Assembly: GCA_010093605.1 (NCBI GenBank)
Contig: MU004184.1
Span: forward strand, 188,179 to 252,178
Length of the DNA stretch: 64,000 nucleotides
Direction of reading: 5' to 3'
Source: Lophium mytilinum
Lineage: Eukaryota
Notes under the pieces: model-generated
Database searches by the model: none
What the model was told of the DNA's origin: nothing
The model's input: only the letters and a program-made list of their open reading frames with translations
Part shown: positions 17,440-57,130 of the stretch, in pieces
Layout: each line of letters opens with the position of its first letter
Position numbering within the stretch: the first letter of the stretch is position 1
Made by a program: the position numbers and the translations under genes

Positions 17440-18000
17440 ACTTTGGGGTCCCACTGATATAGCGCTGCCTACGCTCTTCTCATGCTCGTTTGACACCACT
17501 GTAAAGAGTACCCCAGTCAAGAGGTTCTTCATCAGTCAAAAGCATGTGTGTGGAGTAAAAAAAGCCCACAGGTGCACCCCTCACAGTGGTAAAGTAGAGT
17601 AGAGGTGGCGGTGCAACGACAGTCTAATATCCAATGTATATGTCGTCTCTTCAGATCTAGTAATCCAGATATCTATTAGTCCTAATTGGATGCGGTCAGG
17701 ACTTCCACTTTGCCGTCTTGACACCACCGCAGGGGGGACCCCAGCTAAAAGCTTCCTAGGCTGTCAGAAGTAACATATTTGGAGTTTGGAAAGCCCACAG
17801 GTACACCCCAGGCGGTGGCAAAAAAGAGTACAGGTGGCAAGTTAAAAGATAGTTCAACATGTAATGCATATGTCAATTCATCGTGTCCAGTGCCCGAGAC
17901 ACCCAGTAGTTATGAACTAGTTCGACGGGACTTCTACTTCGTTAACTTGCCACCACAGTCTGGAGAATCCCAGATATGAAGCCATCAGCAGCTCAAGCCT
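17440..18000. repeat. Diverged ~229-bp tandem array (2.5-3 units) with internal inverted arms
   Basis: TTG(A)CACCAC-like anchors at 17490, 17718 and 17947. AAAGCCCACAGGT at 17561 and 17790. Confidence 0.85.
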
Positions 18001-18570
18001 TGATCTATCATGCAATGTATATGTATTTACGTTGTTTCAGAGTCTGGAAAACCGTTCGGCGATGAATCAACATACTCGGGCCACTCTCTTGTCGTCCCGA
18101 TACTAGTGTAAGGGGGGATCTCGGCCACCGAGTTCTCATTCGTCCAAAAGGATTGTATCCGAAGATAGGAAAGCCTGTAGGTACACATGCAGTGGTAATG
18201 ATATTGCAGAAGCAATGCAGTCGATAGCCGGAAATGCAAGGCATCCGACTTTTCATCGTTGTCCGAGTCTTAGAAATTAATTCTTCACGAATAGAAGTAC
18301 TCGGTGTCCTCTTTTGCTGTCCAAATAGCAGTGTAGGGAGGCCGCCAGCCAACATTTTCTCGGCCAGTCAAAGAAATCGCATTGGAGAATACAAACCTGG
18401 AAGGTCCACCCCATGCAGTGGTATTTGAAGTGCAAAGATGAAAGGTTTGGTAGTAAAAATCGCATTGCGTTCGCCTCTTCATCGTTATCCATGTCTGAAA
18501 ATCGTAATACCTATCAAGAAGAGTACTTACATAGCCCATTTGACGTCTCGATACCAGGGTACGAAGACTA

Positions 18571-19507
18571 CTAGGCACACTCACCAACAGACCCCTCCTG
18601 TTCGGTAAAACTGCACGAACAGTTATCTCCTCTCCAATCCCAAGCCTTGCTCACCACCCGTGTCTGCAGACCTCGCCCTGTAAACTTCTTCTGCATCCAT
18701 TCCACCACGTTGCTCGAGATATATTTACCCCAGCTGATCCGCCGAACAGGGCGTCCCTTTTTCATATCCTCTCTCTCTCCCCACTCTCTGAACCTCACGG
18801 GCTCGTAAAGCAGGCGTACCTCTTTCAAGCTACGGCACTCGAACAGCCCCTTGATATCGAAATCATCCATCGTCTCATTGCAGTCGCGCCGAACATCTAT
18901 ATCACCGACATTGATCTGGGCTAGGACGCAGCAATTGGTCTCGCGTAGGTCGAGCGTGAGAGACTCAAGCTGCAAGCAGCGCGCAAGGAACTTAAAATCA
19001 GTGTTGACCCCTGTCGGACGACACGCATAGTTCATGGCGAGCCACCTGTTATAATCCCACCTCCACGAAGGTGAACGTGGCGGATGGCGTTAAATGCAGC
19101 GTTGATAGGAACGATATCGAGGTATCTGGTTAGGGCGATGATGTCGCTAGGGCTATCGTTCAGCACCAGAGTGAGTCTGCGGACGACGTGGGATGTCGCT
19201 TCCTCTAGCAGTTGCTTGGAGACGGTGCACAGGGGCGGGAAGTGGTCCGCAACTTCGCCCCTAACGAGGTCGATTTTTAGCATGGGCTGCTCGTCCGATA
19301 TGCTATTGCTGGCTGCGGCGATGGAGACGGTGCAGTCGTTGTTTTGGTTGCTGACGGCATTTGGTTCCTCTACTACGGGCAGAGCGAGGACGTAGACAAT
19401 CTCCCGGATCTCGCGTGGAAGGCAGAGGAGGGAGGGCTGCGATGGGGGGTTAGCGGTGTGCGGAATGAGGGAGGCTGGCGAGCACCTACTTGGTTTCTGG
19501 TGCTCAT
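18571..19507 (-). pseudogene. F-box-like (LPxEIRxxIY) hypothetical protein with one frameshift
   Basis: Exon 1 19507-19490 (MSTRNQ), intron 19489-19437 (GTAGGT..GCTAAC..CAG), then PSLLCLPREIREIVYVLAL. The frame switches near 19060 into ORF 18571-19035. Could be a sequencing indel. Confidence 0.65.
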
Positions 19508-21039
19508 GACGAGCTAGTAGACTGCTGGGATAAAGTCGAGGAACGGGAACGAATTACAAGGGTGTTGGGAAGGGGTGTTGTGGTTGATAGTGGGGGATTG
19601 TGGTGCTTAGGAGGCGTGTAAGACCGAGTGCAAAGGATAAGACGTTGGGCCAACGGTTGAAGGGTCTTTACATATGGGCGCCGCGATAGACTAACTCATG
19701 TTGGGTGAATGTCACACTGGCTGATTGGACCTGGCAAATCACTGGCATATGAGCCAGGAGCGAGTATAAATTTCTTGCAGATCCAACTAAACATGGACTG
19801 CGGTAGACTAGATTGACAATATGAATTAGGAGCATCAAAACGAGCCGGGTCGAGGATGATGATCGTGTGAGCGCCGGGAGGTGGCTTCGGTCTCGCAAAA
19901 GTTGGGGTTGGCAACCTTGATGGGAGTGGAGGCTCTGGTCCGGCAACCTTGTATGGCGGTGATAACTACCTTGTTCTAAAAATGTACACTTATTACAAAG
20001 CTAGAGGATTCGGAGATTGAAGAATAGTATTGATCTAGGAAGCACATAAGAAGCTTTAAATATATATGTTTGAGCCAAACAGTCCCAGCAGGTCCCTTGT
20101 TGAACGTCACCCCCGAAAAAACGGGTCGACTACGGTAGAAAGAGAACCCCCCATACCGCTCTAAGCCCATGCTACAACACCATTGCAGAGCCAACACCCA
20201 TCGTTCCTAACAGAAGTAGGCAACGTGAAATGCCATTGTTCTAGCGTTGTGCGCTCTGTTTGTAACAACTCATGGCATCGCTACACCCGAAGGATAGCAA
20301 TATTTTGCTCTTGGCCAGGCTCTCTACAACGGGCTCGCGAGGAGATCAAGTTGCTTGTAAATGGCCGATGTGATATCATGATCTGAGATGAGGGATGAGG
20401 TGGTAGGATGAAGAAGAGAATAGGGATAAGGATGGGTTGGTTCGGCATCGAGGTGAAGCAAATGCGGGGAGAGAAATGCCAGGCGCACAATGAGACAACA
20501 ATGCAGAGATGGAAGGTAGGAGCTTAGAAGAAGATGGAATTGAACTACCTCGTACATACGAAAATGTCAACCTAGACGTTCGGAGCAAGGACATTGACGT
20601 TGCAGAACCCGCGTTATAGTCCGGCTTGTTGATCTTGGCTGAGTTTGACCAAGCCTGCCATGGAATAGCAGACCGGTGTCTACTCAGCCGACAGTGTGTG
20701 ATACATGAGCAATCCCAAAGGCGTTGCTGTGTACCATGGTGTTATCGTGACAATCGTAGTGTCAAGGTAGGTGGGATCGAGTTGGGGAGGAACCGGCGTA
20801 GACGGACGAGGTATTCGAGGACGAGCCATGCCATGGAAGTGCACCCCGGAGTAGTCAGTAGCATAAGGGATGCTGCTAGTCGATCAAATTGAATATTAAC
20901 TAAAAGGAGGGCTAATCCTCTGTGGATGGTTAGCCTCGATGAATATTTTGCGGTGGATGAGCATACCACTTATCAAGTCCGACGCCGTACTCCAGTGTCA
21001 CTAAGCTAGGCAGCATTACACGCTTCCCGATGAGCACCA

Positions 21040-21450
21040 GCAACGCCTATGCCGTATTCGGCAGTCCTGAACTGACGTCCTGCCGCTGTCTGCTGCTTCA
21101 GCAGCTTCTGCTCGTGGGTGTCGAAGTAGCAAATCTGAATGAGGTGCTCTTCGCCCCGGGCTTCGACACCGGGGTGTTGTTGAAGTTGCGAATGATTTCC
21201 TCGCAGATCTCGCGGGTCTCGAACCTGTTATAAGCGTGTCAGATGAGCACAAAACTTGGATCCATAAGAGGAGGAGACGTACTGAGCGAAGCATACAACC
21301 ATTGCCGACGACATCACGAAGAATCACGCTTAGCCCGACCTTGTGTGGAGAGAAAATCGAACCGAGCGAAGCCAGCACCATGTCCGATGCCGCTGCTGTC
21401 ACGGAGGAGTCTGCTCGAGCAGACTTTGTGTGGAGAGAAGATCCCCATAT
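21040..21450 (-). pseudogene. MSSP/Spo5-like RRM2 fragments (tandem partial copies)
   Basis: First copy reads IFSPHKVCSSRLLRDSSGIGHGAGFARF. Second reads IFSPHKVGLSVILRDVVGNG..FA, intron 21282-21225, then FETREICEEIIRNFNNTPVSKPG/EEHLIQICYFDTHEQKLLKQQTAAGRQFRTAEY. Frameshifted. Confidence 0.85.
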
Positions 21451-22009
21451 TTCCCCTATTGCGACGTAAGCAAATGTAAAAGATGGAACAAGGATGGATG
21501 CTGCGTACTTTCTGGGTTCGTCAATCTTCACATCAATCTGAAAGGCTATGCTGCACGTGCCATCCTTCTGCTTCTCTAGTACCTCAACGTGGCTGGAGAC
21601 GACGGACGTAGAGGTGACGGAAACAGCCCTAGGCAGCTGGATCACAACGCTGGTGACGAGGATGGTGGTCTTGCCATAGGCACAGCGGGTAGGAGGGGGG
21701 TCCTAGGGGCTGTTAATCGTGATGATGCAACAAGTGAGGCGGAATAGGCTTACGTGGACTACGGAGTTCTTCGCGAACCAGAGTGGAGGGGGGAGCCATG
21801 GGCAAGGTCGTTGACGGGCCGAGACGCTCTGTGCGTCGTAGATTGGGTGCTCAATCCAGAACTCCATGATAGGCGGAGGCGATGTGGATGAGGAGGAGCG
21901 TGGAGGGGGAAGCTCAGCAAACGCGTCGTAGTAGTAAAAGGACGCAAAACTCGCTAACACTAGCGCGTTTTCACCACATTTACGTCACTGAACACGAAGT
22001 GGCAGTACA

Positions 22010-23040
22010 GTTTGAAGCCGTCTGAGGTGGCCTAGGGAGCTTTTGGGCTTGCGAGAACAGTCGTTTTTACGCATTTGATGCTGTGTCAGAGAACCTCAAG
22101 CGGTGTCAAACGAGGTGTAGTTCATACTAGGAAGGGCGTGTACTAAATGTAGCAGTAGTTTCATAATAAAGTCATTCATTCGACGACGGCACACTACAAC
22201 GAGCCCTAGCTAGTCCCGTTTGAGACCGTCTGAGCTGGCCTAGTAAGCCTTTGCGCTTGCCAAAACTGTCAATTTCATGCATTTGATGCAGTGTCAGGGG
22301 ACCTTAAGCGGTGTCAGACAATTGTACTTCATACTACAATAGCCGTGTACTGAATGCATCGGAAGTTCTATGATACAATTAGTAATTCGCTGACGGCACG
22401 TCACCACGAGCCCCGGCTAGTCCCGTTTGACGCTGGTTGAGGCGGTCCACAGTGCTATTGGTCTTGCGGAAATATTCGTTTTCAAGCTTTTCATACAGCA
22501 TCAGGGGACCTCAAGCGGTACTAAACTAGTGTGCATCATAGTACGATAGGCGGGTGTTGAATGTACGGGAAATTATACAGCATAAGCAATAGTTTGCAGG
22601 TGAAACTTTGTATGACGAACCCTGGCTAGTCCTGTTTGACGCTGTCTGGGTTGGCCCAGAGAGTTATTGCGATTGACAAAGCCGTTCTTTATAAGGTTTT
22701 GGTACCAAATCAGAGGACCTTACGCGGCGCCAGGCAAGTATACCTCATCCCAGAGTCGGTTCATACTTAAGTATTGAATTTGAAGAACGCAATCATAACT
22801 TCATAAACTGCCACGTTTTATTCAAGCACACTTAATTAGCATTGTTTAATCCCGTTAAAGGTGGCCCAGAGAACTATTGGGTGTAGCCAAACTGACGTTT
22901 TCAAGCTTTTGATACCGTATCAGGCCATTTCATGCAGTGTTAAACAAGTCTGCATATCTCTTGAACAGGTGTGTATCAAAAGTCTCTAAGGTTTTGAAAT
23001 ATCGTCAATGATGTGTTGAATGCTACTTCTTGTTTTGACA
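22010..23040. repeat. Diverged ~208-bp tandem array (5 units), units with an internal ~19-bp inverted repeat
   Basis: GTTTRA unit starts at 22010, 22218, 22425, 22634 and 22844. In unit 1, arms 22010-22028 and 22093-22111 match 15/19 as reverse complements. Confidence 0.9.
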
Positions 23041-24886
23041 GCCTCCCGCGCCGACCAGGGAAGAAATGGTTTACCCCTCAAGAACTCCGTCCTGTGTAGC
23101 CGTTGGCACATCGGCGTGCCGGGACTTGAAGTGCTTCAATGAGACATCACCTGGCCCCAGTTGAAAAGGCTTTGTCTTGTTGAGGCTCCCGAAATTGCGT
23201 TGCAGCTCCGCCAAGCAGTGGTGCACACGCGGACACACTTCCGGCAGCTTGTTTTAGAAATTAGAGTGCCACCATTTTTATGCCCACATTGACTCCTCCG
23301 CTTCTTGAAAATTTTTATGTCACCGGAGATGACAGCACAGTATAGGTCTCGGCTTCGAGGTCTTGAATTTTTACGATCTCCGCTCTCTGACCGTCCCAAT
23401 CAAAACAGCAGGACCGCAAGTCCAGTATCCACCACGACGGCCACATAGACGCGCGGAGACAACTCCAAAGACCACGTAAGTATCTTAATTACTCCGTCCC
23501 TAACGCGGCAGCATCTCCTCATCATCAGCAGTCTCCTCATCTGAGCCCACCGGGCCGCCCTTTCGATCCCCTGCGTACCGCGACTCGACCCTCCCAGCGC
23601 CAATACACCGCGACACTGGCTCTGATTTGCATAACCTGACGTCGCACCTGGTGTACGAGCTCTGGCATTGAGTACAGGCCAGCGTATAAGCGATATGCCG
23701 AACCCGTCCTCGCGCTCTTTGCTTGCTTCCCCAGCTTCAAGACCAATGCCCGCGGCACCACTCTATCGGCCAACGTGCACGGGGCGAGCTTCCTGGTGGC
23801 GGCTCTTCCACGCTTCCGGAGGACTGTGTATGTAAAAGCTAACAAGCAGTAGCCGCGTGCTGAATTTAACCTAGAGGCCAACCTTGAGCAACATAGACAC
23901 GAGAAGGAGGAGACGGTGCTGGTGATACGGCGGCATCCGGGGACGTTTGCTGCTTCAGATGCAATTTGGAGGCAGCAACATGGCTGCGGAGCGTGTGGCG
24001 GGGAGCGAGGCAGTGGTGTGAATGGTATTTTGAGTAAGTTTGGGCGAGAGCAGACGAGGCGTCGGCTCATTTGGTCCCACAAGGCAGAAGGATGTCCCTT
24101 CCATGTAACGCCGACGCGTATACTTTACCCCCTGGCGTATGGGTAGTAGGTGGGTAAAGCTTGAACAAAGGACGGCTTTGGGAACCTCGACTGATTATAG
24201 GTCGACTGGGATAGGAAGCTAACCTTCCAATACCATTTTGAAGCGCATATCATCTTCTGGAGAATTCAGGGATCTGGCTGAGGTGACTCGATATACAACT
24301 CTTCGAGGCGGAGTCATTTGGGGATTGACAATGTTCTTTCTTCAGTCCATTTTCTGGAAAGATTTCAAATGCAAGCCGCAGTCTATGTCCTCATGAATCT
24401 TCACAGCATTACAACATGGACTAGAGCGTGGAAGTGTATTCTATGAGAGCTTGACACTTTTAATTGTGGTGACCTCTATATAGCTGCAATTAATGGAAAC
24501 ATGGTGTAAGAGCACGAAAGGGGTACACTCGCCGAATGGAGCCTTGGTCCGTTGCCAGCCTGCTAAAGTTGCACGAGGCTGTTCATTTATACGAAGAAGT
24601 CACGAAAGCAATCTTAAAGGTCGCGTAACATAAATCACGAGTTACTAGGACGGGAGCTTGTAGTTTCAAGAGATAAAACTGTGGTAGTTTAGATTGACTA
24701 TGCGATGGCGCCGCCTTGGGTACCTAGATGGGACGTTAAGGGACTTAAGGGGAACATGGAGCTCATTCAGTCAACGCTCGGAGATCGACTTGGGTATTGA
24801 ACATCCCGCCTACCAGCCCCTCGGATTGCCTCAATAAAGAAGACATAATGCGTTTGCAGAGATACAATCAAACGCCTCCAGAAAAC

Positions 24887-25762
24887 CTACTCCTTCTTCT
24901 CCTCCCACTTCCTGATAGTCCCCAACAACGCCTCCTTCAGTGGGACCTCCTTCTCCAACTCACCATAAATCTCATGCCAAAGCGCCTTATCCTGGGCCGC
25001 TCGCCACTTCTTCCGCTCGTCGCTCATCCCCTTCTCTGCCCCCATATCTCTACGGATCTTGTCCTGCCGCTGCAACTCAACCAGAATACCTGTGATGTCA
25101 GTGAGACTGCGCGTAGCAATTCGCAGCTGATTCGTGACTTCTGCAAAGATAGTCCCAAGACGCTCTTTGTCAGATGGAGTCTTACCGTCTTCGTTGCGGA
25201 CGATGGACTTCAGCGCCGCGTTGGCCATCCGCAGCTCGCCGAGGTAGAGCTCGCGGATCTTGAGGACGTGGGGAAGAGGCGGGGGGTGGAGGACGCAGCG
25301 GATCGTGAAGCGCTCGATGGGGTTGGGGGTGCGCAGGAGAGCGCGCTGGGTCGCGTCGCTCAGGTCTTGGTAACGAGGCTCGAGCTTGTCGTAGCCAGAG
25401 ATGAGGTTGTTGCAGCTCTCGCGTAAGTTGATGTAGGTATGCATGTTGGGGTAGTCGGGGGTGCCATCGGCGTTGATGATCTTCGGCTGGCCTGGGAAGT
25501 CTTTGGGCTTGTCTTTGGTTGGATGGGACTGGGGACGTGGATGGGGTCGCTCAGGATGGGAATCTTCGCGAGCTTTAGGGCGATGAGAGGGGCGCCGGAA
25601 CTCACCCTTGCGCTCATGTTGCTCTCGGTGAGAATGGTCTCCACCTTTGCCCTTTTTGAATTTATGCTCTACGCCATCGATGATTTCTTCGATAGGGTAT
25701 TGTCGAGAGGCGCGCTCGTGGTCGCCCTTTTGGGAACCGTGCCGATGGGTGTTCAAAGGCAT
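24887..25762 (-). CDS. Hypothetical protein (291 aa): low-complexity N-terminus, helical C-terminus
   Basis: Uninterrupted ATG-to-stop ORF with coding-like codon bias. No family recognised. Confidence 0.7.
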   Translation of the reverse strand: MPLNTHRHGSQKGDHERASRQYPIEEIIDGVEHKFKKGKGGDHSHREQHERKGEFRRPSHRPKAREDSHPERPHPRPQSHPTKDKPKDFPGQPKIINADGTPDYPNMHTYINLRESCNNLISGYDKLEPRYQDLSDATQRALLRTPNPIERFTIRCVLHPPPLPHVLKIRELYLGELRMANAALKSIVRNEDGKTPSDKERLGTIFAEVTNQLRIATRSLTDITGILVELQRQDKIRRDMGAEKGMSDERKKWRAAQDKALWHEIYGELEKEVPLKEALLGTIRKWEEKKE

Positions 25763-27248
25763 TGTGTCGGTGTCTAGACGAGCGTCGAAGGTGTGGTGTG
25801 TCTAGCCCTTTCCCGTGGAGTGTGGGTGTGTTCCGATCTTGTGCTGGTTGGAAAGCTTGAAATATCGATGCCGGCTAGAGGCTTTTGAATCCCCCAGTCT
25901 TTATCTGAGCAGCGCGTTGAGATACAATGTAGCGTCATAAAGTGAATCCCAAGTTCGTACCCTGACAATGTGAATGAATTTCAAATAAGATTCCATGATA
26001 AACATTGTAGATGTCTAATATGGGCAACGTCGACTATGAGAAGGAATGGAGATGTTATTTTGAATATCTTGAGCGTGTTCAGAGCTGAACTATTTCCATG
26101 CACTTTCCAGTGAACGAGACGAGGGAGAAGATGCGAGTTGCTAGTCGAGTTGAATGAAATATTGGAATAATGGAATATCAGCATCATGCTCTTTCTGTAC
26201 CTAATAAACGAAACAAGAATACATGTCAAGCTGGTCGACTCTTATATTTCATTCTCTACACACCAGGTAGCTCTTTAGGATAACTCACCGAAGGAGCCTG
26301 GATTTCTAGGAATCGCGAAAACAACCGGCACTGAGGCTGCATGGGTATGGGTCGCTTCCAGGGGATACTTTTATAGCTTTTCCTAGCCATCTAGGTCTCT
26401 TCCCTGTAAAGTGGTGGCTTGGAAATGCATCGTGCTGCGGTGCGGCATTATGAGGCGTGCATATATGCTGCCAGGACGGTTGGCTCGGTCAAGTATTTTT
26501 CTACATTGTTCTACTGGATCGGAGTGCTGTTCCAAGAGGCCTTTGACGCTTAGCACCCACATCTTGTCCGCCGTTTCACGTCCGGGTATCAATGTTCGTA
26601 TTATCCACAGCGTCTTCTGAAGATCGGACCTGTTTATTTAGAAATGGCCTATCTTCTTTTTTCGCTTGTCCGACTCCTTGTCTTCCTTGACCTGGGTCTT
26701 TTTGCTCCTCTGGCGTCCGACAGCTCTTCATAAACAGCCCTGGTATCTCTGACCTAAACCTCGCCGGCGTGGACCCGTTGTGCGGCCTTTTCATCCAGTA
26801 GAGCTCCCTGCTGGCGACGTGGGCTGCCCACTCCTCCTACAGCGTGGTGTTCTCCTAGACTCTTTCCAATTCCTCGGCGATGAGTTCAGCCAGGCTAGCC
26901 GGTCTCCTTCAAGGGCTCTGGGAGAACCGGGTGGGACGAGGCTAGATAGGAGCGGTTCCTAATGCTGACTCCGCATTCCCGGTCTGGCGGTTGCGATCTT
27001 TTGATTGCGGGCTAGGCCCTCTATATATAGCTTTGACATAGAGAAACGTACCTGACACGTATTCTACTTCGTCATCACCTATATATATATATGTGTAGGC
27101 TGGAAACGTGTGATGGAACTTCTACGTGTCCTATCCACTCTTTCTATGAGGCGTACGTAGCCTCTTGAAAGAACCTATATAAGCTCACGGAGTCTCTTCA
27201 ATATAACATCATGTTGAACTTCAATAACTCCGTTCTCTGCCAGCAATC

Positions 27249-30639: not shown

Positions 30640-30864
30640 GTCGCCGCCTAATTCTCTGATGATTTCGTCAGCGTGATCGTCAATGTTCCAGGGGTCTGCT
30701 TACTCAAGAGACATAGCGAAGTGCTTCTTGATGGACTTCAGAACCTCCTCATCTTCGGCGGTAGCGAAGAATCAGATACAAAGATCCTTGGTGCTGAAGC
30801 GATCCGCACGTCCAACACGGTGCAGATACGACTCAGAGTCATTCGGCAAATCCTGGCCGATAGC
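30640..30864 (-). pseudogene. SUB2: SUB2/UAP56 helicase C-terminal fragment
   Basis: Reads [52 protein letters not shown], then intron 30703-30656 (GTAAGC..GCTGAC..CAG). Confidence 0.85.
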
Positions 30865-31099
30865 ATAGCGAGCAGTGTGCTAGCGATTCTTTCTTGCCGC
30901 TGCGAGTGCGAGGAATGGTCGTATGCGCGACAGCGGAGAAGATGTCGAGCGGGCGCTGCTGAGTGGGAGTGAACACCAGCGGACAAGCTCCTCCGCCTGC
31001 CCTTTTTCGTGCACGCAGATCTGGCGTGAAAACGGAAAAGCTATACACGGCAGAGAGGTCCCAACCACGCCCCAGCGTTATTTCATCAGGGGCTGGACG

Positions 31100-31357
31100 T
31101 GCGGTAGGCGGGTCGAGTTGGCTACGGTCGCTTCTGGAGTCTGTATACTTCAGATCCTTGTCCACGTACTTGAAGACAAGCATCCACTTGTTCTCGGTGT
31201 GGGTGATATCGTGCAGTGAGACGATGTTCACGTGTTTGAGTTCCTTCATCAGCAAGGTCTCGCGGATGGCCGTGGACGGGGTGCCATCTTCAGAGTCCAA
31301 GCGATTCTCCTTGTGAGCGACGAACTCGCCGGTCTAGCGTTTGCGACCTTTGGCGAC
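31100..31357 (-). pseudogene. PHO85: PHO85 CDK fragment (exon 2, PSTAIRE region)
   Basis: CAG acceptor, then [70 protein letters not shown]. The stop is TAG where Q is expected. Confidence 0.92.
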
Positions 31358-32896: not shown

Positions 32897-33129
32897 TATC
32901 GTAACACACTCACGGCATACTTCCATCCCTGCAGACGGCTGGTGGCTTGAAGAGCCGCGACCCTTTCCGACCTCCTTCGCTTCCTCCATCACTGACTTCA
33001 TCGATACTTGTACAAATGAGTATGGAAGCGAGGGAATTTGAGGCGATCGAGCGAGTGGAATATACCTGTGCCAAATCCATTGTTGTATCTTCCAAGCTGC
33101 CAAGAGACATTAGCCTAGCCCTACGGAGA

Positions 33130-33610
33130 GGTCGTGCACGATGGCCATCGAGCGCAATATCTTGCCCAGGATGGATCCTAGATACTAATTCATGAACGTC
33201 ATCGCACGTGTCCTAGTCGGATGTAGGCATCGTCTGGGAGTTGACTGGGAGCTTCTGTGGGATCCGGAAGAACTTGGACACGGTCTCGTGGATTTTGGGC
33301 ATCTCCTGCTTCACCCACCAATCGGCCCTACCCGAGTGACGGAGGTTGCTTGCTTGGACCCATATACCGTGGAGAATGCGACCTTCTGGCTATGGAGCCT
33401 GGCTAACTTCGAGCTATCCTTGGTGAGATGGTCGCAGAATCATACTATCTGTGAACTCAGAGCAGTGAAGTCCAGCAGATAGTTGACGGATTGCATATAC
33501 CCGAGCGTCTGGCCTAGGCCTGTGGACAGCTCGTGGACAATGGCCATCGAGCTCAACCTCTGATCTAGGATGTTCTTTAGATACTGATTCATGAACGTCA
33601 TGGCGCCTAT
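33130..33610. repeat. ~75-bp direct repeat, 400 bp apart
   Basis: ATGGCCATCGAGC..AGGATG..TAGATACTRATTCATGAACGTCAT at 33140 and 33540. Confidence 0.8.
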
Positions 33611-36600
33611 CTTGACGGGCTGGATAGATGAACAGAAGCGGTCCCTTCATCCAGAACTCACTCATGTGGTCTATCAAGATCAAGCGGCTGGTGATAAACA
33701 GATACTCCGCAGACTGATTGACGGGGGTGGGTGGCATGTATCCTCTTTGATCGAGACATGAATCGAGACGGCGGACGGCTTCCTGTGGGGAATGCTGGAC
33801 AAGCTTGAGTTCTTCCTGGTGTTCCACTACACGAACGGCGCCCAGCTTGCTCTGCTTTCCTCTTGATACCGCCCTTCCACGTGAGAGTTGCTCGCCTTCT
33901 CATTCGGTAGACTCGTGAGGTTCCGAAGACAGGGTTCCATGCTTACAATAGACGCTTTTTCCATCTTAGATCTTCCTATCGGAGACTTGTTCTCTCGAGC
34001 TTGAACGTGTCGTTAGAGCGTGTCGTCGCCGGTCGGGATGACTTAGTGTTCGCGAGTGGGTTGAAGTATTTCTCGTACTCCATTCTGAGAGTAGCACGAG
34101 TTGTTTTCTTGGCGTAGGACTTCTGGTGTCTTGTCTGGGCGTGAACTCGGTCGTCGCCTTAGCCATACCAGGTTCTGCTGTGAAGGGCACTGCCGAATTC
34201 CTCGCCCAAAAGCTCCCGACACGACCATCGGAGTTGCCTTCGTAAGAACATTGGCCTTGAGCAGCATTCTCGGAGCGATCTGCATTGGAGCGTTCGGGGA
34301 GTGGAGTTGCGGACAGCTTGACAGATGGGTCCTTCGATTCAGAAAACGCGTCCCAAAGCGTGCTGTATGCTCGGGACCTTCCAGTCGACTTGTTGATCCC
34401 ACCAACGTGCTCCGGGTAAAATTCGGATCAGATAGGACGAAGACGCTATTCTGCAATATACTGAGCGAAAAGAGAGTGTGCTCATGGTCCGGAAAGTGGA
34501 GAGAGCGCAAATGATGTGCTGTGCCTTCGCCGCGACGATATCCGAGTACTGCCTCCTCCCGCATCTCAAGTGTTTGTGTTCGATGAGTGTTTCCTAGATG
34601 TGGTCCCTAGTTCCATCTTGAAAGCAGCGAGTACCCAGTTCTTTGCCCTGGACGCATATCAGCTTCGCACCCTCACATGCTGACCCCTCCTACTCATGGC
34701 GACCCGGTACCCTTGCAGGCCTTTAGTATACGGTATCGGCAGATCGATAACTACTAGAGGAGCTGGAGCAGCGGTAGCGGTGATCGTCATCGTCTCCGCT
34801 AGGGGAATGGCGAGTGTGACGTTGTCGCTTCACATGGTAAACCTCGTCTGAGCTGGGATCGCTGATATGGTCTTATAGAGAACTGGTAAAGGAGGAGGTC
34901 GTACTGGAAGGTCTCCGCGGTGAAGATGCTGGTCTGGAGCTGCAGGTCTGGAGATGCTTCCGCGAGCCCGCTGTAGAAAGACATGAGGGGTCAGCGCGGC
35001 AAGAAGGACTCACCCAACCAGGCGGAGGAGGAATGAAATACGATGTATGAAGTATGTACCGCGGTGAGGTTGTTCCAGAGCTGACAAAGACGGACCCGTC
35101 TATCACATCCCCTGTGGTTCGGCCAGAAATTGAGAACCCCAGAGGCCAGGATTGGACAAGCACTAGAGCGTGCGAGCGATCAGAGTCTCGGCTGACGCAG
35201 CGTAAAGTGAGAGAACAGTCGTTCCAAGAACCACAATGATAGGGAAGACGAAAGGGGAGCGAAGATACCCGCTTTCGAACTGCAGGGCGACGGCGCTTCG
35301 CGATTGTCCGTGATGCCCTATCGTAACCTTCATTACTCCTGCCCTCGACGTGTACCTTTCGTCGCTCATAACTTCGTACGGCTCCTCCTTTTCCCATGTC
35401 TAAGCTCATGCCCCGATCAATTGCCACTCCTGTTCAACTAGTCCGGAGCCAAGATGTTGCCATGTACGGACCCTGCTCGATGTCATGCTGTTTCTTCGAG
35501 TCGCGATCCTTGATCACCACGCCTCGAGACATCAGACAGTCCAGGTTTGGACTGTGCTTCGTGGTCTCGGTAATCATATAGAGTTCCTGAACGAGACGCG
35601 GAGGGCGACGAGAGACTGGACAAGAGTCTAGTGGCGATTTCGAGGAGATATGAAACAGCATTCTGGCCGTGGACACGCTGATCTGATCGCCGTAGGAGCG
35701 TACTAGATGGCCAGAGCCGCAAAGTATGCCGAAAAGTCCAATCACAGACCGAATTTGCGCGATATGGCATCGATGGAAGGCTAGGCTCGGAGAAGCGAGC
35801 TTTTCTCTCTGATCTCCTACCATAATGTCTTCCATCTCTGCAGACCCGGCCGGTGCTGGAAGTGCTGTTGGCGTGGGACGTGGAGTTTGGTATGGGTTTG
35901 TGTGTTGTTCTTTGGTCTCAGCATTTTGAAACTTAGTCAACGATATATCGAGGGAACATGCAAAGCATGGAAGGCCTACGCATCCAGCAAGATCGAATGG
36001 GCGAGCCCATGAGGTCCTAGACACTTGTCTAGCTAGACGGCAAGTGGAAAAGATGCTATTAGGACGGCCTCACGACCAGTTCTAGCTGTCCGCGCTGGCT
36101 GTTGGAGACCTTGAGCGAGCGAAGAGATTGTGAGCGGGAAAGTCGTAGAAGCATAGGGTTGAAGCATCCCTATTGCAGCCCGAGCCAGCCCTTGTAAATA
36201 AAACCACGGCGGATCAGGGAACAAACATACCGATTCGTCAGTTAGTCTGTAGTATCGCGCCAGGAAGTGGAGTGAACGCCGCGTGCGCAACTGTGACGCG
36301 AGATCGGTAGAACCTCGTGGTGAAGTCTGAGATGCTCATTTCTGGAGTTGAGGACAGATGTCATTGACTTCGGAAATTGTGCGAAAGAAAGAGATGCCCA
36401 TCCCATACGCGCAACTTAGCAACTAAGAGCGGCTCTTTCATTCGTTCAAACTGCGCCAGTCTTGGTTCTACCCCTTTGGAAGCAAGCATGGCGTTTCGAC
36501 GCGTCTCTATCGAAGTGGAAGGCCAGCGACACGCGTCGTTACAGCATGCCTATAGGGCAAGGCGGGGAAAACTCTGCCCGGCAGCATCAACAACAACAAC

Positions 36601-39030: not shown

Positions 39031-39047
39031 CCCGTACCGCAAATATG

Positions 39048-39491
39048 CAGTTCAACGGATACGACTGGCAAGGCCGCCAGCTCGAGGTTCGCGAGGATCG
39101 TTTTGCCCAAGGTCCCCCCGGCAGAGCTCGGGAGAGCTATAGGCTGTTCACCCTAGGGTTGGACAACCCACAAGGATAGAGTGCCACCAAAGGTTTGGGT
39201 CGACTCTGACCCAAGCCCAGAGGCGCTTGAATGCGTCTGGCGTGCGGCGCATGGACTCAACCCTAAGCGCTGTCCAAGACCTGCGTAACGAGACTGTTGA
39301 CTGTAGACCAAAACACTTCCCAACGACTTCACCGACTTCGCAACCTTGGGCGGCGAGGTAAGTGAAGTCATCCACGTCCGGAATGTAAGTGGCGTGACTC
39401 CTCCCTTCTATACAAGAGACCGACCGCACTCAGCTCCCGTGGTTAACAACCAACGAGAACTTGGTAGAGCTGTTCAGGACTAGGGGCAAGG
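39048..39491 (+). pseudogene. GBP2: GBP2/HRB1-like fragments (end of RRM2; linker and start of RRM3)
   Basis: QFNGYDWQGRQLEVREDRFA at 39048-39107. Then PNDFTDFATLGGEVSEVIHVRN, intron 39385-39433, LPWLTTNENLVELFRTRGK. Confidence 0.9.
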
Positions 39492-39643: not shown

Positions 39644-39768
39644 AAGCAGGGATGATGTTCAGCGCAACTCTCTCTGAGGACATCCGTCCCGTCTGCAGGA
39701 TGTTCATGCAGAATCCGCTCGAGATCTACATCGACAACCAGGAGAAACTCACTCTCCATGGTCTCCAG
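39644..39768 (+). pseudogene. SUB2: SUB2/UAP56 fragment (motif III and downstream) embedded in the GBP2 mosaic
   Basis: Reads KQ(V)[39 protein letters not shown]. It is directly preceded by GBP2-like VSRAEIQCE (39619-39645). Confidence 0.92.
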
Positions 39769-39814
39769 CCGATGCCCGTTCCCGTGGTACTAATGTAGTC
39801 CAACTCGAGAACCT

Positions 39815-40163
39815 AGAGGGCCCAGCTACAGCACGAAGCCCACGATCGCCCCTATAGTACTGTTGCGGTTCAGCTGGAGAAGCCAGAGGATAGAGTTACT
39901 GCCCGAAGTGAACGGTCGCTCCCGTGGTACTAGTGTGGTCCAGTCCGAGAAAGTGGAAGATGCAGTCACAGCTATCTGTACGTCGTGTCCTGTCAGCCTT
40001 CGAGATACCATCTAACCATTCCACAGCCAAATGCACTGGATATCAGTACGGTAGTCGCCCGCTTGGCATCTCTCACGTCCGCTACACCAACATCTCCAGC
40101 GGAGGCGAGGCTATGGAGGGAACTGAGGCTACTGGCGGTCTTACTCAGGATCAGATCATGTAG
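39815..40163 (+). pseudogene. GBP2: GBP2/HRB1-like RRM3 C-terminal fragments up to the native stop
   Basis: Duplicate piece RAQLQHEAHDRPYSTVAVQLEKPEDRVTA. Then EVNGRSRGTSVVQSEKVEDAVTAI, intron 39978-40026, SKCTGYQYGSRPLGISHVRYTN..GGLTQDQIM*. Confidence 0.9.
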
Positions 40164-45398: not shown

Positions 45399-45411
45399 TT
45401 CAACGCACTTC

Positions 45412-45515
45412 GCCTTCGGGCATTTGGTCAATTTGAAACAACACAGAGAAGATTAGCATGGCCCCTGCACTAAGGATGACACGCTTTATCAAAGAGTAGC
45501 TTCAAAATTTTTTTT
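45412..45515 (+). ncRNA. SNR6: U6 spliceosomal snRNA
   Basis: 5' GCC-TTCG-GGC hairpin, TTTGGTCAATTTGAAAC, ACAGAGA box 45443-45449, GATTAGCATGGCCCCTGCACTAAGGATGAC and a T-run terminator. Confidence 0.96.
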
Positions 45516-45541
45516 GTGCTTTTTGCGCACGCTAGGGTTGC

Positions 45542-52589: not shown

Positions 52590-53170
52590 AGATGCAACTG
52601 CCAGAGACCATGACTTGGTGTATTTGATATTCTTTCATATCCCAAATGAGCAGGATTGACGTTAGCAAAATGTATTTCCACTTTGGAGTCGTTTAGAAGA
52701 TTTTGGATTGATGACTTCTGTGGTTTTGCCCCACGGGGCCATTTCCAGCCGCAAGACGCATCTGCCAGTGAGCATCGACACATGTAGAGGGCAGCACCAC
52801 GGCATGAAAAATGCTCTTTCTCATACTTTTAAGCTTCTGATCACGCCGTGTGATAATTATAGGGCTTCAAAATCAGAGAGAATATGCCTGTCGCGCGTCA
52901 TCGAGATGTCGACGCGGCGAAAGAGTGTCTGCCAGTGAGTAGCGACAGCCGCAAATCTCCACACCAGACATCCAATCGTTACTCTTCTAAGGCAACTTGA
53001 TACCTCTTCCCACCGTGTTATGCTACTTTAGCTTCAAAGCCAGCGAGACTAGCTTTTGCGTCTCTTGGAGGGGGTATCTGGCTCCACCGAGGCGCCTCTG
53101 CCAGTGGACAGCGACACCAGCAAGACGCATCACCACAGCCGCAAAGACAGGCAACCTTCTTCCCATGAGA
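52590..53170. repeat. Diverged ~167-bp tandem array (3-4 units)
   Basis: CTGCCAG at 52598, 52762, 52929 and 53098. GCTTCAAA at 52864 and 53030. Confidence 0.7.
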
Positions 53171-53671
53171 GGTATCTCTTATGAGTATATCTCTGTCTAG
53201 CCTAAAGACCTCCTTCGAATATGGCGGTGGCTCTACGTGGACCATTATGCAACCTGCTGCCAAGACAAGATATCCGCCACAAACATGAAGGTCGAAACAT
53301 CGCCGGAACCTACCAAGACACCTGCCAGAACACCATCAACCAGTGCCAGAACACCATAAACCCGACAACACTCAAAGATCATCACCGCCCTTCAAGATCA
53401 AAACGATTGCCGCTCTTCCCGCCCCTCCAAACGTCAACGCCTCCAGCTCCACGAAGAGCGAAACCTCCTCCACGAAGAGCGAAACTTCGACGACCTCCGT
53501 TCCCCTGGTGATGACGCTGGAACACGCCACCTGCGCGTCTCCGTTCCTTTCCTCCTTGCAGAACACACAGCTACTCTCTCACCTCAGCGCCACCTAGTCG
53601 ACGATGAATCGAGAGCCGGACTATGTTCGCATTGACTTCGAACCCCAACATTGCGTCAATGCGTAACCTGG

Positions 53672-53833
53672 CAGCACGTCAACATCGTCTCCATGTACGA
53701 CGTCACCCACACCAAAAATAGGCTGATGGTCGTCTTCGAGTACATGGACAAGGATCTGAAGAAGTATATGGACTCCAGAGGCGACCGTTGCCAACTGGAC
53801 CCAGCCACGATCAAGGCCTTCATGTTACAGCTC
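53672..53833 (+). pseudogene. PHO85: PHO85 CDK fragment (subdomains IV-VIa)
   Basis: Reads [54 protein letters not shown]. Confidence 0.9.
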
Positions 53834-54063
53834 TCGGTAAACCGGGCATGAATCAGGCGGCACTTCATCCTATGCGCAATGGGTCTTGAGCCCTACCAAT
53901 GATGGTGGACAACAAAGAGACTCTGCTCGCGATTTCGATCCTGGCAGCGATGGCCAGTTCCCCGCTATGCTACGTCCCTGGACATGGCCCCTTCGACAAT
54001 TTCGCGAATGCCAATGTTGTTATCTTCCGTCATGATCATCCCATCCACCACGAGTGTGGCCCC

Positions 54064-54180: not shown

Positions 54181-54253
54181 CTCTGGACTACCTCGGCCCT
54201 TGTCCTTGTACCTGTTCTGTCTCAGTTTCGCCGGGCACCAGACTAGCATTTGT

Positions 54254-54346
54254 GGCTTCGACGCAGGAGTCGCATCCAACCCCTCCAACGACTTCACGGG
54301 ATTCGCAACCTATGGCGGCGAGGAGAGCGAGTTTTCTACGTTGCGG
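54254..54346 (+). pseudogene. GBP2: GBP2/HRB1-like RRM2-RRM3 linker fragment
   Basis: Reads GFDAGVASNPSNDFTGFATYGGEESE, paralogous to 39319-39384. Confidence 0.75.
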
Positions 54347-54499
54347 CCTGCAGAGGCTGCTTCTCGAGCCTCAAGTATACGGGAAAGAGTCATTGAAGCT
54401 CAGCTGCGACTGTCTTCAGCAGCTCAGCTGGTTGAAAGAGTTGGTTGGAGTGAGACGAGCTTCCACATTGGAACGCTAGACACAAAAAAGTAGACCAAT

Positions 54500-56040
54500 A
54501 CAAAGTAAGCCACCTCATAATCGTCCTCAACTCCTTCACCTTCGACACCGCCATCCAAACCCCGCCGACTGCCTCATAGTCGAGCGCTCAAAGGCGGTGC
54601 CAAGATTGAAACCTGTCCCTGATATGGCAAGAGAGTTTTCTGCTCACGTATCATCTCTTGACCTATCTGTGGATGTGACGCGCGGGCAAGTTCCTCGACT
54701 CCAAATACCACCATGGAGAGTCGAGCGACAGCTGGCAGCTGGGTTAAGACCGTTCATGGACGCCCGGCTCAGACATCTTCTTCGGCAACACCGTCTTTCT
54801 TACACAGATACAGAAGCATAGCTAACCACGTAAGCAGATCCCGAGTCCAAAGCTCTACCGGTATCCCAGAAGAGTACACCCCCACAACCTCCTCCATCCT
54901 TCCAAGACCTCCCATCCCAAGCACACCGAAACATGGCACCGCCATCCGAACCACGCCGACTTCCTCATAGCTGGGCTCTGGAAAGCGGCGCCAAGATTGA
55001 TACCCATTCTGCGATATGGTGCAGACGACTCGACTCACCTATCCGGGCGAACTGACGCCGTAGGCAAGTTCCTCAACTCCTAATGCTACTATGGAGCTTC
55101 GGGAGGGCGACTCGAGGTCAAAGTATCCACCCAAGAATCGTCTATGGACGCCCAGCTCAGACATCTTTTATCACCCCACCACGTCTTGCCTGCGTTACGG
55201 TAGCATGGCTAACAAGTAAGCAGACTTGGGGACAAATCTATAGCCCAGCTCGGACTTGAGTACTATACCAGTCACACAACAAAGTACGTCCACCCATTCT
55301 CCTCCTCCATCCCTCGACCGCGCCCACCCAACCACCCAATACCCCGGCACCGCCGTCTCTCCGTACCAGCTTTCTCATAGCCGAGCGCCAGACGGCGGCG
55401 CCAAGATCGAAACCCATTCCGCGATATGGCAGAGATGGTCACTCTAAAGTATCCGGGCGAGCTGAAGCACGGGCACGTTCCCCGACTCCTAATGCCACTA
55501 TGGAGAATCGGGAGGACGATGGCAAAAACAACACGGCCAACGGGGTATCGTCCATGGACGCCCGGCTCAGACATCTTTTCTCGCACAGCACATTCGTTGT
55601 GCATGTTGGAGTAGCATAGCTAACTTATAAGCAGGTTCAGACACCAACCGGTGGTCTAGCTCAGTTTCCCAACAAAGGTACGTCCACCTGGTCTTTCCCC
55701 CAGCCCTCCAACCCCATCCCACCGACATCCCCCCCAATACCCCGGCACCGCCGTCCCTCCGTGCCGGCTCCCCCATAGCCGCACACCCAACCGCGGTGCC
55801 CATATCAAAACACACGACATGCGTCGTAGTTCCGGGCCGCCGCCCTCAGGAGCAGGGCCGGTTACGTGGAGCGGGAGGCTGACGCAGGAATGCCTCAGGC
55901 CTTGGACACACGCAAAAGTCGTTGACGCCAGAGCATGTGCCCCCTCCCTGTGTTCCAACCCGTGGGATTGGGGAGGACCGATGGCCGCTAAGGTCCATGG
56001 ACGCCTGGCTCAGACATCAATTAGGATTGCGACATCTGCC
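54500..56040. repeat. Diverged ~390-410-bp tandem repeat (about 4 units)
   Basis: GCCAAGAT-type anchors at 54599, 54990, 55400 and 55798. ATGGACGCCNRGCTCAGACATC occurs four times. Three units carry GCTAAC..AAGCAG (branch/acceptor-like). Confidence 0.9.
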
Positions 56041-56239
56041 TTCCTAGGTCACTATACTAACTTTTTGATTTTGTAGCAGCACGTGGAACTCCGCTCTCGG
56101 GGGTATTGGGCAACATATCAGGAAAGGCTTCAGGAGGAAAAGGGGTGAAGCTGGCACATAAACGCGGGTCGGAGGCTCACTACTTTTTTGTCTACCACAG
56201 CTTCTCATGGATACAATGCAGATTATATTATTCTACTCT

Positions 56240-57130
56240 CGACCATCGTTTGACTACTCTTGGACGTGCTGGCTCATGCTCTCCTTACAGTGATGTCGCG
56301 CGAGCAAAACAGAAGCTCAAGTATGACCGTTCATCGCTACTGGCGTTCAACCACTCTGACCGCCATGAAGGAGTTCAGGAAGCGGGAATGAGACTACCTC
56401 TTGACCGCATCACAGACTGGTAGCTAGGGCGCTCTTTACAGTGATGTCAGGCGCGCAAGAGGGAGGTATAAGGATGCCAAGTCATCGGTACCGGGTTTCC
56501 TGGCCTCTACGGAGGATCGAATTCTCGACGCATTGGACATTAGACTGTCTCTTGACCGAATAGTTTTCTTCCAGCTAGGGACCTCCTTGCAGTGGTATCG
56601 ATCGAACAAAGAGAGAGCTTAAATATCTCGATTCATCCGTACTAGGTTCCAAAGTCCCTTATCCAGATTGAAACGCGGGTGCATTGGGAATTAGATTATC
56701 TCTTGAGCGAACTGCTACTGGTATGTCGAAGGACTCCTTGCAGTGGTGTCTGAATAGCAAGAGAGAAGCACGGGAACACCAATTCATTTCTGAATGGTTT
56801 CACCGGCATTGAGTAGGATGGAAAGTTTGCTGCGCTGGACATTGGACTTGCCCTTGACCGGATGGCTACCTTCTAGGTAGGGCCCTCCACACAGTGGTAT
56901 GAGTCGGTCAGAACTGGAGCTTGAAGAGATTCATTCACCGCAAATAGGATGTGCAGACACTAAATCGGATGACAGGGTGAATGCATGAGGTATCAGACTA
57001 CCTTTTGACCAGCTCGTAACCCTCTGCTTAGGCTACTCCCAACAGTGATGTTGAACGAGCAAGAGCAATGCCCGAACATGGAGATATTCATGCTCCCATG
57101 ACGGCAACTCCACAGAATAGATATATAGCT
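56240..57130. repeat. Diverged tandem array with exact 151-bp period (6 units)
   Basis: CAGTG core at 56288, 56439, 56590, 56741, 56892 and 57043. A conserved GACT..CYCTTGACC block lies about 45 bp upstream in most units. Confidence 0.92.

Follow-up and report, generated by a model that had tools for sequence, protein, structure and literature searches.

Do tandem arrays of different period that lie close together on a chromosome share a common core, and what might such a core do? The question arises from three arrays with periods of 229, 208 and 151 bp in a 64-kb stretch of DNA (the window, by which we mean the whole of the stretch analyzed). To judge from its U2 and U6 snRNA genes, which are positioned between the arrays, and from a kinase that is 64% identical to its Mytilinidion resinicola counterpart, the window derives from a Dothideomycete fungus. 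The region is gene-poor and tandem duplication is common in it, since approximately 9.3 kb (14.5% of the window) sits in 12 degenerate long-period arrays; the lag scan that detected these recorded 35 lags reaching threshold in the real window and none in any of three shuffled windows. Among 300 scanned open reading frames (ORFs), the only fragments recognizable by Pfam are three kinase-domain pieces, and the scan placed no Pfam-bearing gene around the arrays.

A tandem-repeat family with a 151-nt unit

The periods given in the first-pass annotation all hold. Core-to-core distance in the 151-bp array is exactly 151 nt five times consecutively (56281 to 57036); the corresponding spacings are 228, 229, 150 and 225 in the 229-bp array, and 208, 207, 209 and 210 across the five copies of the 208-bp array. 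Likewise reproduced was the match between the reverse complement of 17488-17514 and 56426-56452, which are identical at 21 of 27 positions with all six mismatches being transitions. Profile comparison indicates that this 27-nt match understates the relationship between the 229-bp and 151-bp arrays. These arrays and two smaller loci that go with them are as follows.

56206..57111, plus strand: 151-bp array, six head-to-tail units starting at 56206, 56357, 56508, 56659, 56810 and 56961
56281-56297, 56432-56448, 56583-56599, 56734-56750, 56885-56901 and 57036-57052, plus strand: 17-nt core boxes of the 151-bp array
57130-57187: possible partial seventh unit of the 151-bp array, a weak match (E 0.35)
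17433..18490, minus strand: 229-bp array, five units at 17433-17660, 17661-17889, 17890-18040 (a 151-nt form without insert), 18041-18264 and 18265-18490
17492-17508, 17720-17736, 17949-17965, 18099-18115 and 18324-18340, minus strand: core boxes of the 229-bp array
18493-18577: weak sixth unit of the 229-bp array (E 0.058)
17545..17620, minus strand: 76-78-nt insert as seen in unit 1 of the 229-bp array, shared by units 2, 4 and 5 but missing from unit 3
60456..60707, minus strand: two further copies of the unit, spaced 108 nt apart, with core boxes at 60512-60528 and 60620-60636
59189..59254, plus strand: probable solo copy (profile columns 35-100), core at 59230-59246

A profile of the six 151-bp units, searched with nhmmer, matched the 229-bp array in five units, all on the opposite strand (E 4.2e-13, 2e-10, 2.3e-8, 1e-6 and 5.8e-3), with matches spanning 70-117 profile columns, and the reciprocal search of the 151-bp array with the 229-bp profile gave E values of 9e-7 to 8e-5. 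The best E in 30 dinucleotide-shuffled windows was never below 0.016; the relationship is, by these profiles, far above chance and far longer than 27 nt. Furthermore, the 17-mer consensus of the core occurs six times in the window when up to three mismatches are allowed, against 0.08 expected; none of 100 shuffles reached six, and every occurrence falls inside a family copy. Alignment of full units with MAFFT resolved the 229-bp unit into a whole 151-bp unit plus an insert of 76-78 nt, from which one unit (unit 3) is free. The insert is placed by this alignment after ATTAGACT and holds an inverted partial copy of the core, found in unit 5 at 18403-18440 on the plus strand (profile columns 70-107, E 0.0018) and as a weak match in unit 1 at 17571-17590 (E 0.58).

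At the level of homology, then, we have shown the 229-bp array, the 151-bp array and the two-unit array at 60.5 kb to belong to a single tandem-repeat family, non-coding and lineage-specific, whose basic unit measures 151 nt. The two-unit locus was matched by the 151-unit profile at E 7e-6 (60488-60594) and 4.4e-5 (60611-60683). The solo copy at 59.2 kb probably belongs to the same family: the 151-unit profile finds it at E 0.0033, with none of 30 shuffled windows below 0.01, although the 229-bp profile gives no better than E 0.15, and its core carries three mismatches to the 17-mer consensus. Within the window the family thus comprises four loci in both orientations, with regular head-to-tail periods of 151, about 229 and 108 nt and one solo copy; the arrays are small, at 2-6 units. 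A pattern scan of metagenomes returned no loci. Hence the idea of a dispersed array family with a common core survives in its four loci, different periods and both orientations, whereas the notion of separate constructs assembled around one site does not, because the whole unit of about 151 nt is homologous over its full length.

We have also shown by phylogenetic comparison that the units are old and not homogenised. In a tree of the 11 array units, branch lengths add up to 4.4-5.1 substitutions per site (kappa about 3); the topology is star-like, and terminal branches measure 0.26-0.58 substitutions per site. Units resemble one another at only about 50-60% and do not group into clades by array, which argues against recent homogenisation. 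Such a pattern may reflect an ancestral 151-nt unit that was amplified in tandem and then established at a number of places close by. Within one array, the insert would have been acquired by a unit, and the insert form would have spread by unequal exchange, leaving a single unit of the old form; the later divergence of the copies would have proceeded by point substitution only.

Movement as part of a transposable element offers a different account of the dispersal. The unit would have been an internal or subterminal tandem repeat in a DNA transposon that has since decayed, such as a Tc1/mariner-like element (ends TA|CAGTG) or a Helitron-type element that carried both arrays and pieces of genes, and each array would be the trace of an ancient insertion. 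In Tc1/mariner elements the terminal sequence following the TA target is CAGTG, and the ends of fungal mimp MITEs begin CAGTGGG beside such a target. The family core contains the string TA|CAGTGG, with TA preceding CAGTG/CACTR in 5 of 14 copies; the insert of the 229-bp unit creates an inverted pair of cores some 70-80 nt apart, as in a mimp-type element; and kinase-domain fragments are present in the region. Occurrence at four places, in both orientations and with flanks that are not detectably alike, is what would be expected of a unit that moved without its surroundings, but flanks as diverged as the units would escape detection, so that their unlikeness is weak evidence. Against this origin, homology extends past the motif in both directions in all copies within the window, the dispersed ones included (profile spans 10-116, 29-101 and 35-100), so the motif is not the end of an element. 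Nor does the 151-bp form possess a terminal inverted partner; no target duplication was seen, and none of the 300 scanned ORFs contains a recombinase, transposase, integrase, reverse transcriptase or helicase domain. We therefore reject a MITE or transposon terminus for these copies, and consider a transposon-derived origin improbable.

The 208-bp array and the kinase fragments

22004..23047, plus strand: 208-bp array, five units, a non-member of the family by the absence of any cross-profile match

The third array had been assigned to the same group. A core common to the 229-bp and 151-bp arrays is borne out (E down to 4.2e-13), but homology along the unit does not extend to the 208-bp array: its profile found no match outside its own array (best E 0.39), the 151-bp and 229-bp profiles found nothing inside it up to E 10, and the 151-bp and 208-bp arrays have no exact word longer than 10 nt in common. 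What links the 208-bp array to the 229-bp array is a single 13-mer, GGTGTCAAACGAG, which is indeed present at 22102-22114 in the former and at 17485-17497 on the minus strand of the latter, in unit 1 of each. This word is not conserved among the five 208-bp units and occurs in just one 229-bp unit. It is shared with the 208-bp array by 4.0% of 2000 random non-array segments of equal size, and 16 of 500 random segments share an exact word of at least 13 nt with that array; with about 12 arrays to compare, an event of 4% is expected. The 208-bp array is, on these comparisons, an unrelated tandem duplication and one of about a dozen in the window.

In favor of the proposal that all three arrays are built on a recognition site, CAGTGGTGTCAAACGAG, serving the collection of gene fragments stand the exact 13-mer, a word of a length that only 3-4% of random segments share with the 208-bp array, and the position of one kinase fragment (57312-57509) about 200 nt from the 151-bp array. 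The 13-mer belongs to the conserved part of neither array. The block that is conserved in the family is instead CTCCTTACAGTGGTGTC, and the AAACGAG tail of the proposed site is variable. The remaining two kinase fragments are separated from the nearest family copy by about 2.4 kb and 12.5 kb, leaving one fragment adjoining a family array, and the suggested part in accumulating gene fragments finds no partner among the ORFs in the form of a recombinase or transposase domain. We regard this proposal as extremely unlikely.

Conserved boxes and a fixed register

Conservation within the family unit is uneven. The 17-nt box CTCCTTACAGTGGTGTC (columns 76-92) is 81% conserved, compared with 53% for the rest of the unit, and a second box, CTyTTGAC (columns 43-50), lying 26 nt upstream of it, is 77% conserved; because the dispersed copies and the alignment of the 229-bp units were found or anchored by the profile, the apparent conservation of the core is inflated. 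When all copies are considered, none of 10,000 column permutations reaches the observed clustering of conserved columns in a 17-column sliding frame. The sole test free of this bias uses the six 151-bp units, whose boundaries were set by the period, independently of the profile, and here too the conserved columns cluster (p=0.0014, column-permutation test). It is the same 17 columns that are best kept in the six 151-bp units and in the remaining family copies. Allowing rates to vary among sites improves the model by 10.4 log-likelihood units, with empirical site rates that differ modestly (0.71 for the core and 0.87-1.15 elsewhere). Transitions outnumber transversions in the box by 1.6-2.8 to one, against about 0.9 overall, as expected if the box is less saturated. 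The box is conserved above the rest of its monomer, as a protein-binding box would be.

The six units of the 151-bp array are in perfect register. Their MAFFT alignment occupies 151 columns with no gaps at a mean column identity of 68%, and all eight unit segments are most alike at shift 0 (0.35-0.78, versus 0.13-0.35 at shifts of 1-3). The terminal branches of these six units sum to about 2.4 substitutions per site, or roughly 360 changes, without a single change of length, whereas the 208-bp array, which is less diverged, has changed in length (208, 207, 209, 210, with several gaps); the comparison is a rough local calibration. Fixed spacing is not a rule of the whole family, since the 229-bp array has changed in length outside the core (228, 229, 150, 225).

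Selection on a site and on its spacing would explain both the uneven conservation and the missing length changes. Conservation alone would suggest that the boxes act at the level of DNA, as a candidate site for a sequence-specific DNA-binding protein, and the first-pass view of the core as the site of a single factor may be right insofar as the box changes more slowly and the spacing is fixed. The explanation that we put first, albeit tentatively and at somewhat less than even confidence, joins these elements: an old 151-nt family, diverged by substitution, whose boxes are a putative site for such a protein. It is tempting to speculate further that the 17-nt box and its upstream partner are a selected protein site, that selection keeps the 151-nt register, and that the arrays serve as functional chromosomal landmarks, for instance in chromatin organization, pairing or segregation; this fuller reading we consider unlikely.

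A neutral history is another possible account. The family would then be the relic of an old tandem duplication without function, and, in place of selection, a small sample of related copies, mutation that varies locally or earlier gene conversion would have produced the pattern of boxes and lengths. The abundance of degenerate arrays in the window accords with such a history, as do the lack of anything functional nearby, the modest contrast in site rates and the fact that the unbiased clustering test has six units. It sits less easily with the retention of the same 17 columns in the 151-bp units and in the other copies, with some 360 changes free of length change beside a younger array that shows several, and with the higher transition:transversion ratio of the box. 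We treat a neutral relic as a serious, if somewhat less likely, alternative to the protein-site explanation.

Several conserved boxes that keep their distance from one another while the stretches between vary could also be the promoters of small transcription units (RNA polymerase III A/B-box-like, for example) encoding a short RNA with a variable body. The location of the U2 and U6 genes between the arrays would fit, as would the resemblance, which we presume, of CAGTGG to part of a tRNA A box and, more loosely, of ATTCATC about 35 nt downstream to a B box. However, ARAGORN found no tRNAs, Rfam gave no matches to the 151-bp and 229-bp arrays at E up to 10, and the T-run of the upstream box is broken in most units. 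Folding was equally negative: the RNAalifold consensus contained no pairs for one strand and reached -0.26 kcal/mol for the other, and 12 single units folded no better than shuffles (z-scores -0.87 to +2.0). These results lead us to reject a structured RNA gene, be it an Rfam family, a tRNA-derived SINE or a snoRNA, and make small transcription units very unlikely. Coding sequence is rejected too, as stops number 28-34 in every one of the six frames when 14 units are read, and conservation is flat across codon positions (0.57, 0.59, 0.57).

Relation to known repeats and meaning

The family most resembles satellite and minisatellite families with monomer-length variants, with which it has in common head-to-tail non-coding units, an insertion variant that has spread within its array, and short arrays at several loci in both orientations. 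It departs from them in units that are so dissimilar and not grouped by array, and in counts of 2-6 units per array, not hundreds. The CENP-B box of primate alpha satellite, a 17-nt box kept in otherwise diverged monomers of nucleosome-like length, is a possible working analogy; yet the family arrays measure about 1 kb, no 10-bp WW or SS periodicity of the nucleosome-positioning type was detected, there is no evidence of a centromere, and we claim no membership. A second parallel is with the short euchromatic arrays akin to the Drosophila 1.688 (359-bp) satellite, in which small groups of satellite-like units are dispersed over part of a chromosome; the present family is known from the sequence of one 64-kb window. 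To our knowledge, neither CENP-B-box-like nor 1.688-like logic has been described in filamentous ascomycetes.

A fungal host, tandem duplicates and a 27-nt match differing by transitions only would recall the duplications mutated by RIP in ascomycetes. RIP would leave differences that are almost all C:G to T:A transitions, a raised TpA/ApT and a depletion of CpA+TpG. The 151-bp units nevertheless show 546 transitions and 601 transversions, and the transition:transversion ratio across whole units is about 0.9-1.1. Against the usual RIP index thresholds, TpA/ApT (0.71 in the 151-bp array, 0.86 in the 229-bp array) and (CpA+TpG)/(ApC+GpT) (1.28 and 1.17, respectively) are not RIP-like, and at a G+C content of 47-49% the family is not AT-rich. 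RIP products were rejected on the whole-unit substitution ratio and these indices.

An introner-like element is recognized by GT...AG ends and a branch site; it sits within a gene and folds stably. The family has no consistent GT...AG ends on either strand (judged by eye), and this identity was likewise rejected, given the lack of Pfam-bearing genes around the arrays and of a stable fold. Introner-like elements of Dothideomycetes (PMC4457414) share with the family the fungal class and the character of a short, non-coding, multi-copy sequence; the family differs in lying outside recognizable genes, in its ends and predicted folding, and in having tandem copies. Among the titles and opening lines of abstracts retrieved on satellite DNA and tandem repeats in Dothideomycetes, nothing relevant was found.

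Taken together, our findings replace the idea of three arrays sharing one site with one old repeat family and one unrelated array. Should the box prove not to be selected, the picture of this region is still tidied, with no sign of repeats that collect gene fragments. If, on the other hand, the box is a selected protein site, the family would be a rare example, among fungal satellite-like repeats, of a conserved functional box kept strictly in register over a long time, and would open a way to learn how a filamentous fungus reads such repeats.

A repeat family with a long and a short unit

We have identified one old, non-coding 151-nt tandem-repeat family together with an insert-bearing 229-nt variant, and the assignment of four loci, in both orientations, to this family is firm. 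The loci are listed here with the 208 array, which had previously been grouped with them.

56206-57111 (+): the 151 array, six head-to-tail units of 151 nt
17433-18490 (-): the 229 array, five units
60456-60707: two units with 108-nt spacing (E 7e-6 and 4.4e-5, 151 profile)
59189-59254: probable solo copy, judged by its profile match (E 0.0033, 151 profile)
22004-23047 (+): the 208 array, five copies spaced 208, 207, 209 and 210 nt

The first-pass annotation had proposed that all three arrays share one core motif, citing a 21/27 match between the 151 and 229 arrays in which the six mismatches are all transitions. This match is present as described. Furthermore, a profile of the six 151-nt units matches the minus strand of the 229 array (E 4.2e-13, 2e-10, 2.3e-8, 1e-6 and 5.8e-3). 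The matches span 70-117 profile columns, and together they contain a single 1-nt indel. The reciprocal search with the 229 profile recovers the 151 array at E 8.7e-7 to 7.8e-5. These E-values are trustworthy because 30 dinucleotide-shuffled windows gave no better than 0.016 (lowest E 0.031, 0.078 and 0.016 for the three profiles). Whole-unit alignment reveals the 229-nt unit to be a complete 151-nt unit plus an insert of 76-78 nt placed after ATTAGACT. Within the insert lies part of the core in inverted orientation (18403-18440, E 0.0018); unit 3 of the array (17890-18040) has no insert. In the 151 array all five core-to-core intervals are exactly 151 nt; in the 229 array they are 228, 229, 150 and 225 nt. 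A profile of all copies detected no additional clear member within the window.

The units are highly diverged. An ungapped comparison of the six 151-nt units finds 51% of 2265 site pairs different, by 546 transitions and 601 transversions. Maximum likelihood joins the 11 array units in a star-like tree in which units of the two arrays intermingle; its branches total 4.4-5.1 substitutions per site, the terminal ones measuring 0.26-0.58. Repeat-induced point mutation (RIP) was rejected as the main cause of this divergence: the overall transition:transversion ratio is about 0.9-1.1, G+C is 47-49% and the dinucleotide indices, set against generally known thresholds, are not RIP-like.

The claimed kinship thus holds for the 151 and 229 arrays, on reciprocal profile matches and whole-unit alignment, but not for the 208 array, which as judged from its sequence is unrelated. 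Outside the array, its own profile matches at best with E 0.39, and searches with the 151 and 229 profiles give no match inside it up to E 10. The 151 and 208 arrays have no common word longer than 10 nt; the string common to the 208 and 229 arrays is one exact 13-mer, in one unit of each, and it lies neither in the most conserved columns of the 208 unit nor in the family's conserved block. A 13-mer was shared with the 208 array by 4.0% of 2000 random non-array segments, and 16 of 500 random segments shared an exact word of at least 13 nt. With about a dozen arrays to compare, a coincidence at the 4% level is to be expected. On TpA/ApT the 208 array scores 1.11, and no other array in the window has a RIP-like value for that index; its other RIP index, 1.06, is not RIP-like.

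Beyond the window, a pattern scan of metagenome contigs returned 0 loci, a search of the satellite-repeat literature found nothing relevant, and a literature search with a 10-mer gave, among the matches listed, primer-type papers only. Among the sequencing runs listed, two DNA runs from a single sample, possibly the source of this DNA, carry matching sequence; no RNA run is listed with them, and a run presumed to be RNA contains almost none of the words of 16500-24500.

Genomic setting

The region is gene-poor. Its single clear gene encodes a protein kinase (6187-7959, minus strand), the top named relative of which is a Mytilinidion resinicola protein (64% identity, 75% of the query covered). 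This places the window in a Dothideomycete fungus. We scanned 300 stop-to-stop ORFs against Pfam, namely every one of 95 aa or more across the window (160 in all) and 140 of 55-94 aa, these with start positions confined to 14-25 kb and 52-63 kb. Nothing exceeded the cut-offs except the intact kinase and three kinase-domain fragments; two additional matches, RRM_1 and Peptidase_M29, fell under the curated cut-offs. Transposase, recombinase and reverse transcriptase domains were absent from these ORFs.

Kinase-domain fragments
30842-31333 (-): Pfam Pkinase columns 23-88
53636-53848 (+): Pfam Pkinase columns 55-107
57312-57509 (-): Pfam Pkinase columns 109-132

The intact kinase is not the source of these fragments. 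The first two are inverted duplicates of each other (31110-31234 and 53675-53802, 81% over 128 nt), and the catalytic-loop fragment adjoining the 151 array contains a 29-nt tandem duplication (57370-57438, 2.4 copies, 90% matches). It had been suggested that the arrays help to accumulate gene fragments; we find no support for such a role, and only one of the three kinase fragments lies beside a family array.

Rfam at gathering thresholds, applied to the whole window, identified full-length genes for U6 snRNA (45412-45511, plus strand, 86.5 bits) and U2 snRNA (36695-36887, minus strand, 75.3 bits) and no other match. Both sit between the 151 and 229 arrays, in surroundings that are otherwise almost domain-free. 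A 46-nt direct repeat (39320-39365 against 54285-54330, 83%) suggests duplicated exon pieces; its first copy ends in GGCGAG followed directly by GTAAGT, resembling an exon end and 5' splice site. A 47-nt direct repeat spans 58 kb (2566-2612 against 60870-60916, 81%), with weak similarity at the ORF level. The longest orphan ORF (24890-25801, minus strand, 304 aa) has no usable relatives in the ESM Atlas and a poor model there, from residue 14 on (mean pLDDT 0.44); it may be a spurious gene prediction.

Tandem Repeats Finder detected the 208 array alone of the three, the 151 and 229 arrays being too diverged. A lag scan recovered both of these along with some nine other degenerate arrays of long period; three shuffled windows gave no arrays.

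Further tandem arrays, none matched by the 151-family profile
8754-9317: period ~161
11011-12080: period ~327/346
12478-12860: period ~225
13722-14602: period ~679
33044-33690: period ~399
38617-39081: period ~216
39720-40021: period ~70
52732-53077: period ~167
54462-55887: period ~400

Together the twelve arrays make up ~14.5% of the 64-kb window (about 9.3 kb).

Alternative identities

Several identities for the repeat were considered and rejected. A coding repeat is contradicted by 28-34 stops in each of the six frames over 14 units, and family conservation has no codon-position pattern. For a structured RNA, RNAalifold finds no structure on either strand, twelve units fold no more stably than their own shuffles (z -0.87 to +2.0), and Rfam gives no matches on the 151 and 229 arrays at E up to 10. 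Strings resembling A/B boxes or 5S sequence, picked out by eye, were without support for a tRNA- or 5S-derived unit, there being no Rfam match and 0 tRNAs found in the window. The core resembles a 3' splice site when read on one strand and a 5' splice site when read on the opposite strand; inspection by eye found no matching partner site kept across units, as a spliceosomal intron or introner-like element would have. Nor is there a nucleosome-positioning signature, 10-bp periodicity being absent for WW (p=0.85) and SS (p=1.0) dinucleotides. The family was also set beside the CENP-B box, the 1.688 repeats, the ends of mimp elements and introner-like elements.

A transposon-derived origin of the family is, in our estimation, improbable. 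A possible RSS/Transib-like heptamer-nonamer was considered; CACAGTG is exact in a few family copies only. The string TA|CAGTGG resembles Tc1/mariner ends. Homology extends on both sides of this latter string in every copy, and it is therefore not an element end. A search for larger duplicated segments around the arrays, by self-blastn, all-against-all blastp of ORFs and local alignment of 400-nt flanks, yielded nothing clear; the observed flank score was reached by 4 of 200 shuffles for the upstream pair and by 141, 46 and 60 of 200 for the other pairs.

Conservation, register and history

Conservation across the family is markedly uneven. The 17-nt core, profile columns 76-92 (CTCCTTACAGTGGTGTC), is 81% conserved and an upstream box, CTyTTGAC in columns 43-50, 77%, against 53% for the remainder. 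No permutation of columns in 10,000 matched the clustering observed for all copies in a 17-column sliding frame; the same test on the six 151-nt units alone, free of profile bias because these were cut by period, gave p=0.0014. A rate-variation model fits better by 10.4 log-likelihood units, and the transition:transversion ratio inside the core rises to 1.6-2.8, in keeping with lower saturation there. The recognition site of the first-pass annotation therefore needs shifting: the conserved part takes in bases 5' to CAGTG, and the AAACGAG tail varies.

The 151 array is also in perfect register. Gapped pairwise alignment at mild gap costs introduced compensating gaps into its units, and a register test was used instead: all eight unit segments were most similar at shift 0 (0.35-0.78), the values at shifts 1-3 being 0.13-0.35. 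Summed over the six units, the terminal branches come to about 2.4 substitutions per site, or roughly 360 changes. The 208 array, though less diverged, has several length changes; taking from it a yardstick of about one length change per 50 substitutions, a rough estimate and not a measured rate, some seven would be expected in the 151 array, where 0 are seen. The 229 array, too, has changed length outside its core. The upstream box, as CTyTTG (columns 42-47), and a downstream CAArAG (columns 100-105) bracket the core 52 nt apart (for example 56398-56403 and 56456-56461); 65 of 84 cells are complementary, and sliding lowers this to 35-50 of 84. A stem between them was rejected as a structure, the pairing being a consensus-level 6-mer with little covariation.

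It is tempting to speculate that the core is a protein-binding box acting at the DNA level, with both its sequence and its spacing under selection, and we tentatively favor this reading of the conserved columns and fixed register. The main rival holds the family to be a neutral relic in DNA where tandem duplication comes easily, and we consider it somewhat less likely. As to how the family arose, the most likely history begins with the amplification in tandem of a 151-nt unit, which would then have been seeded at nearby places. One unit would have gained the insert, and unequal exchange would have carried the insert form through its array. Point substitutions would then have driven the copies apart over a long time.
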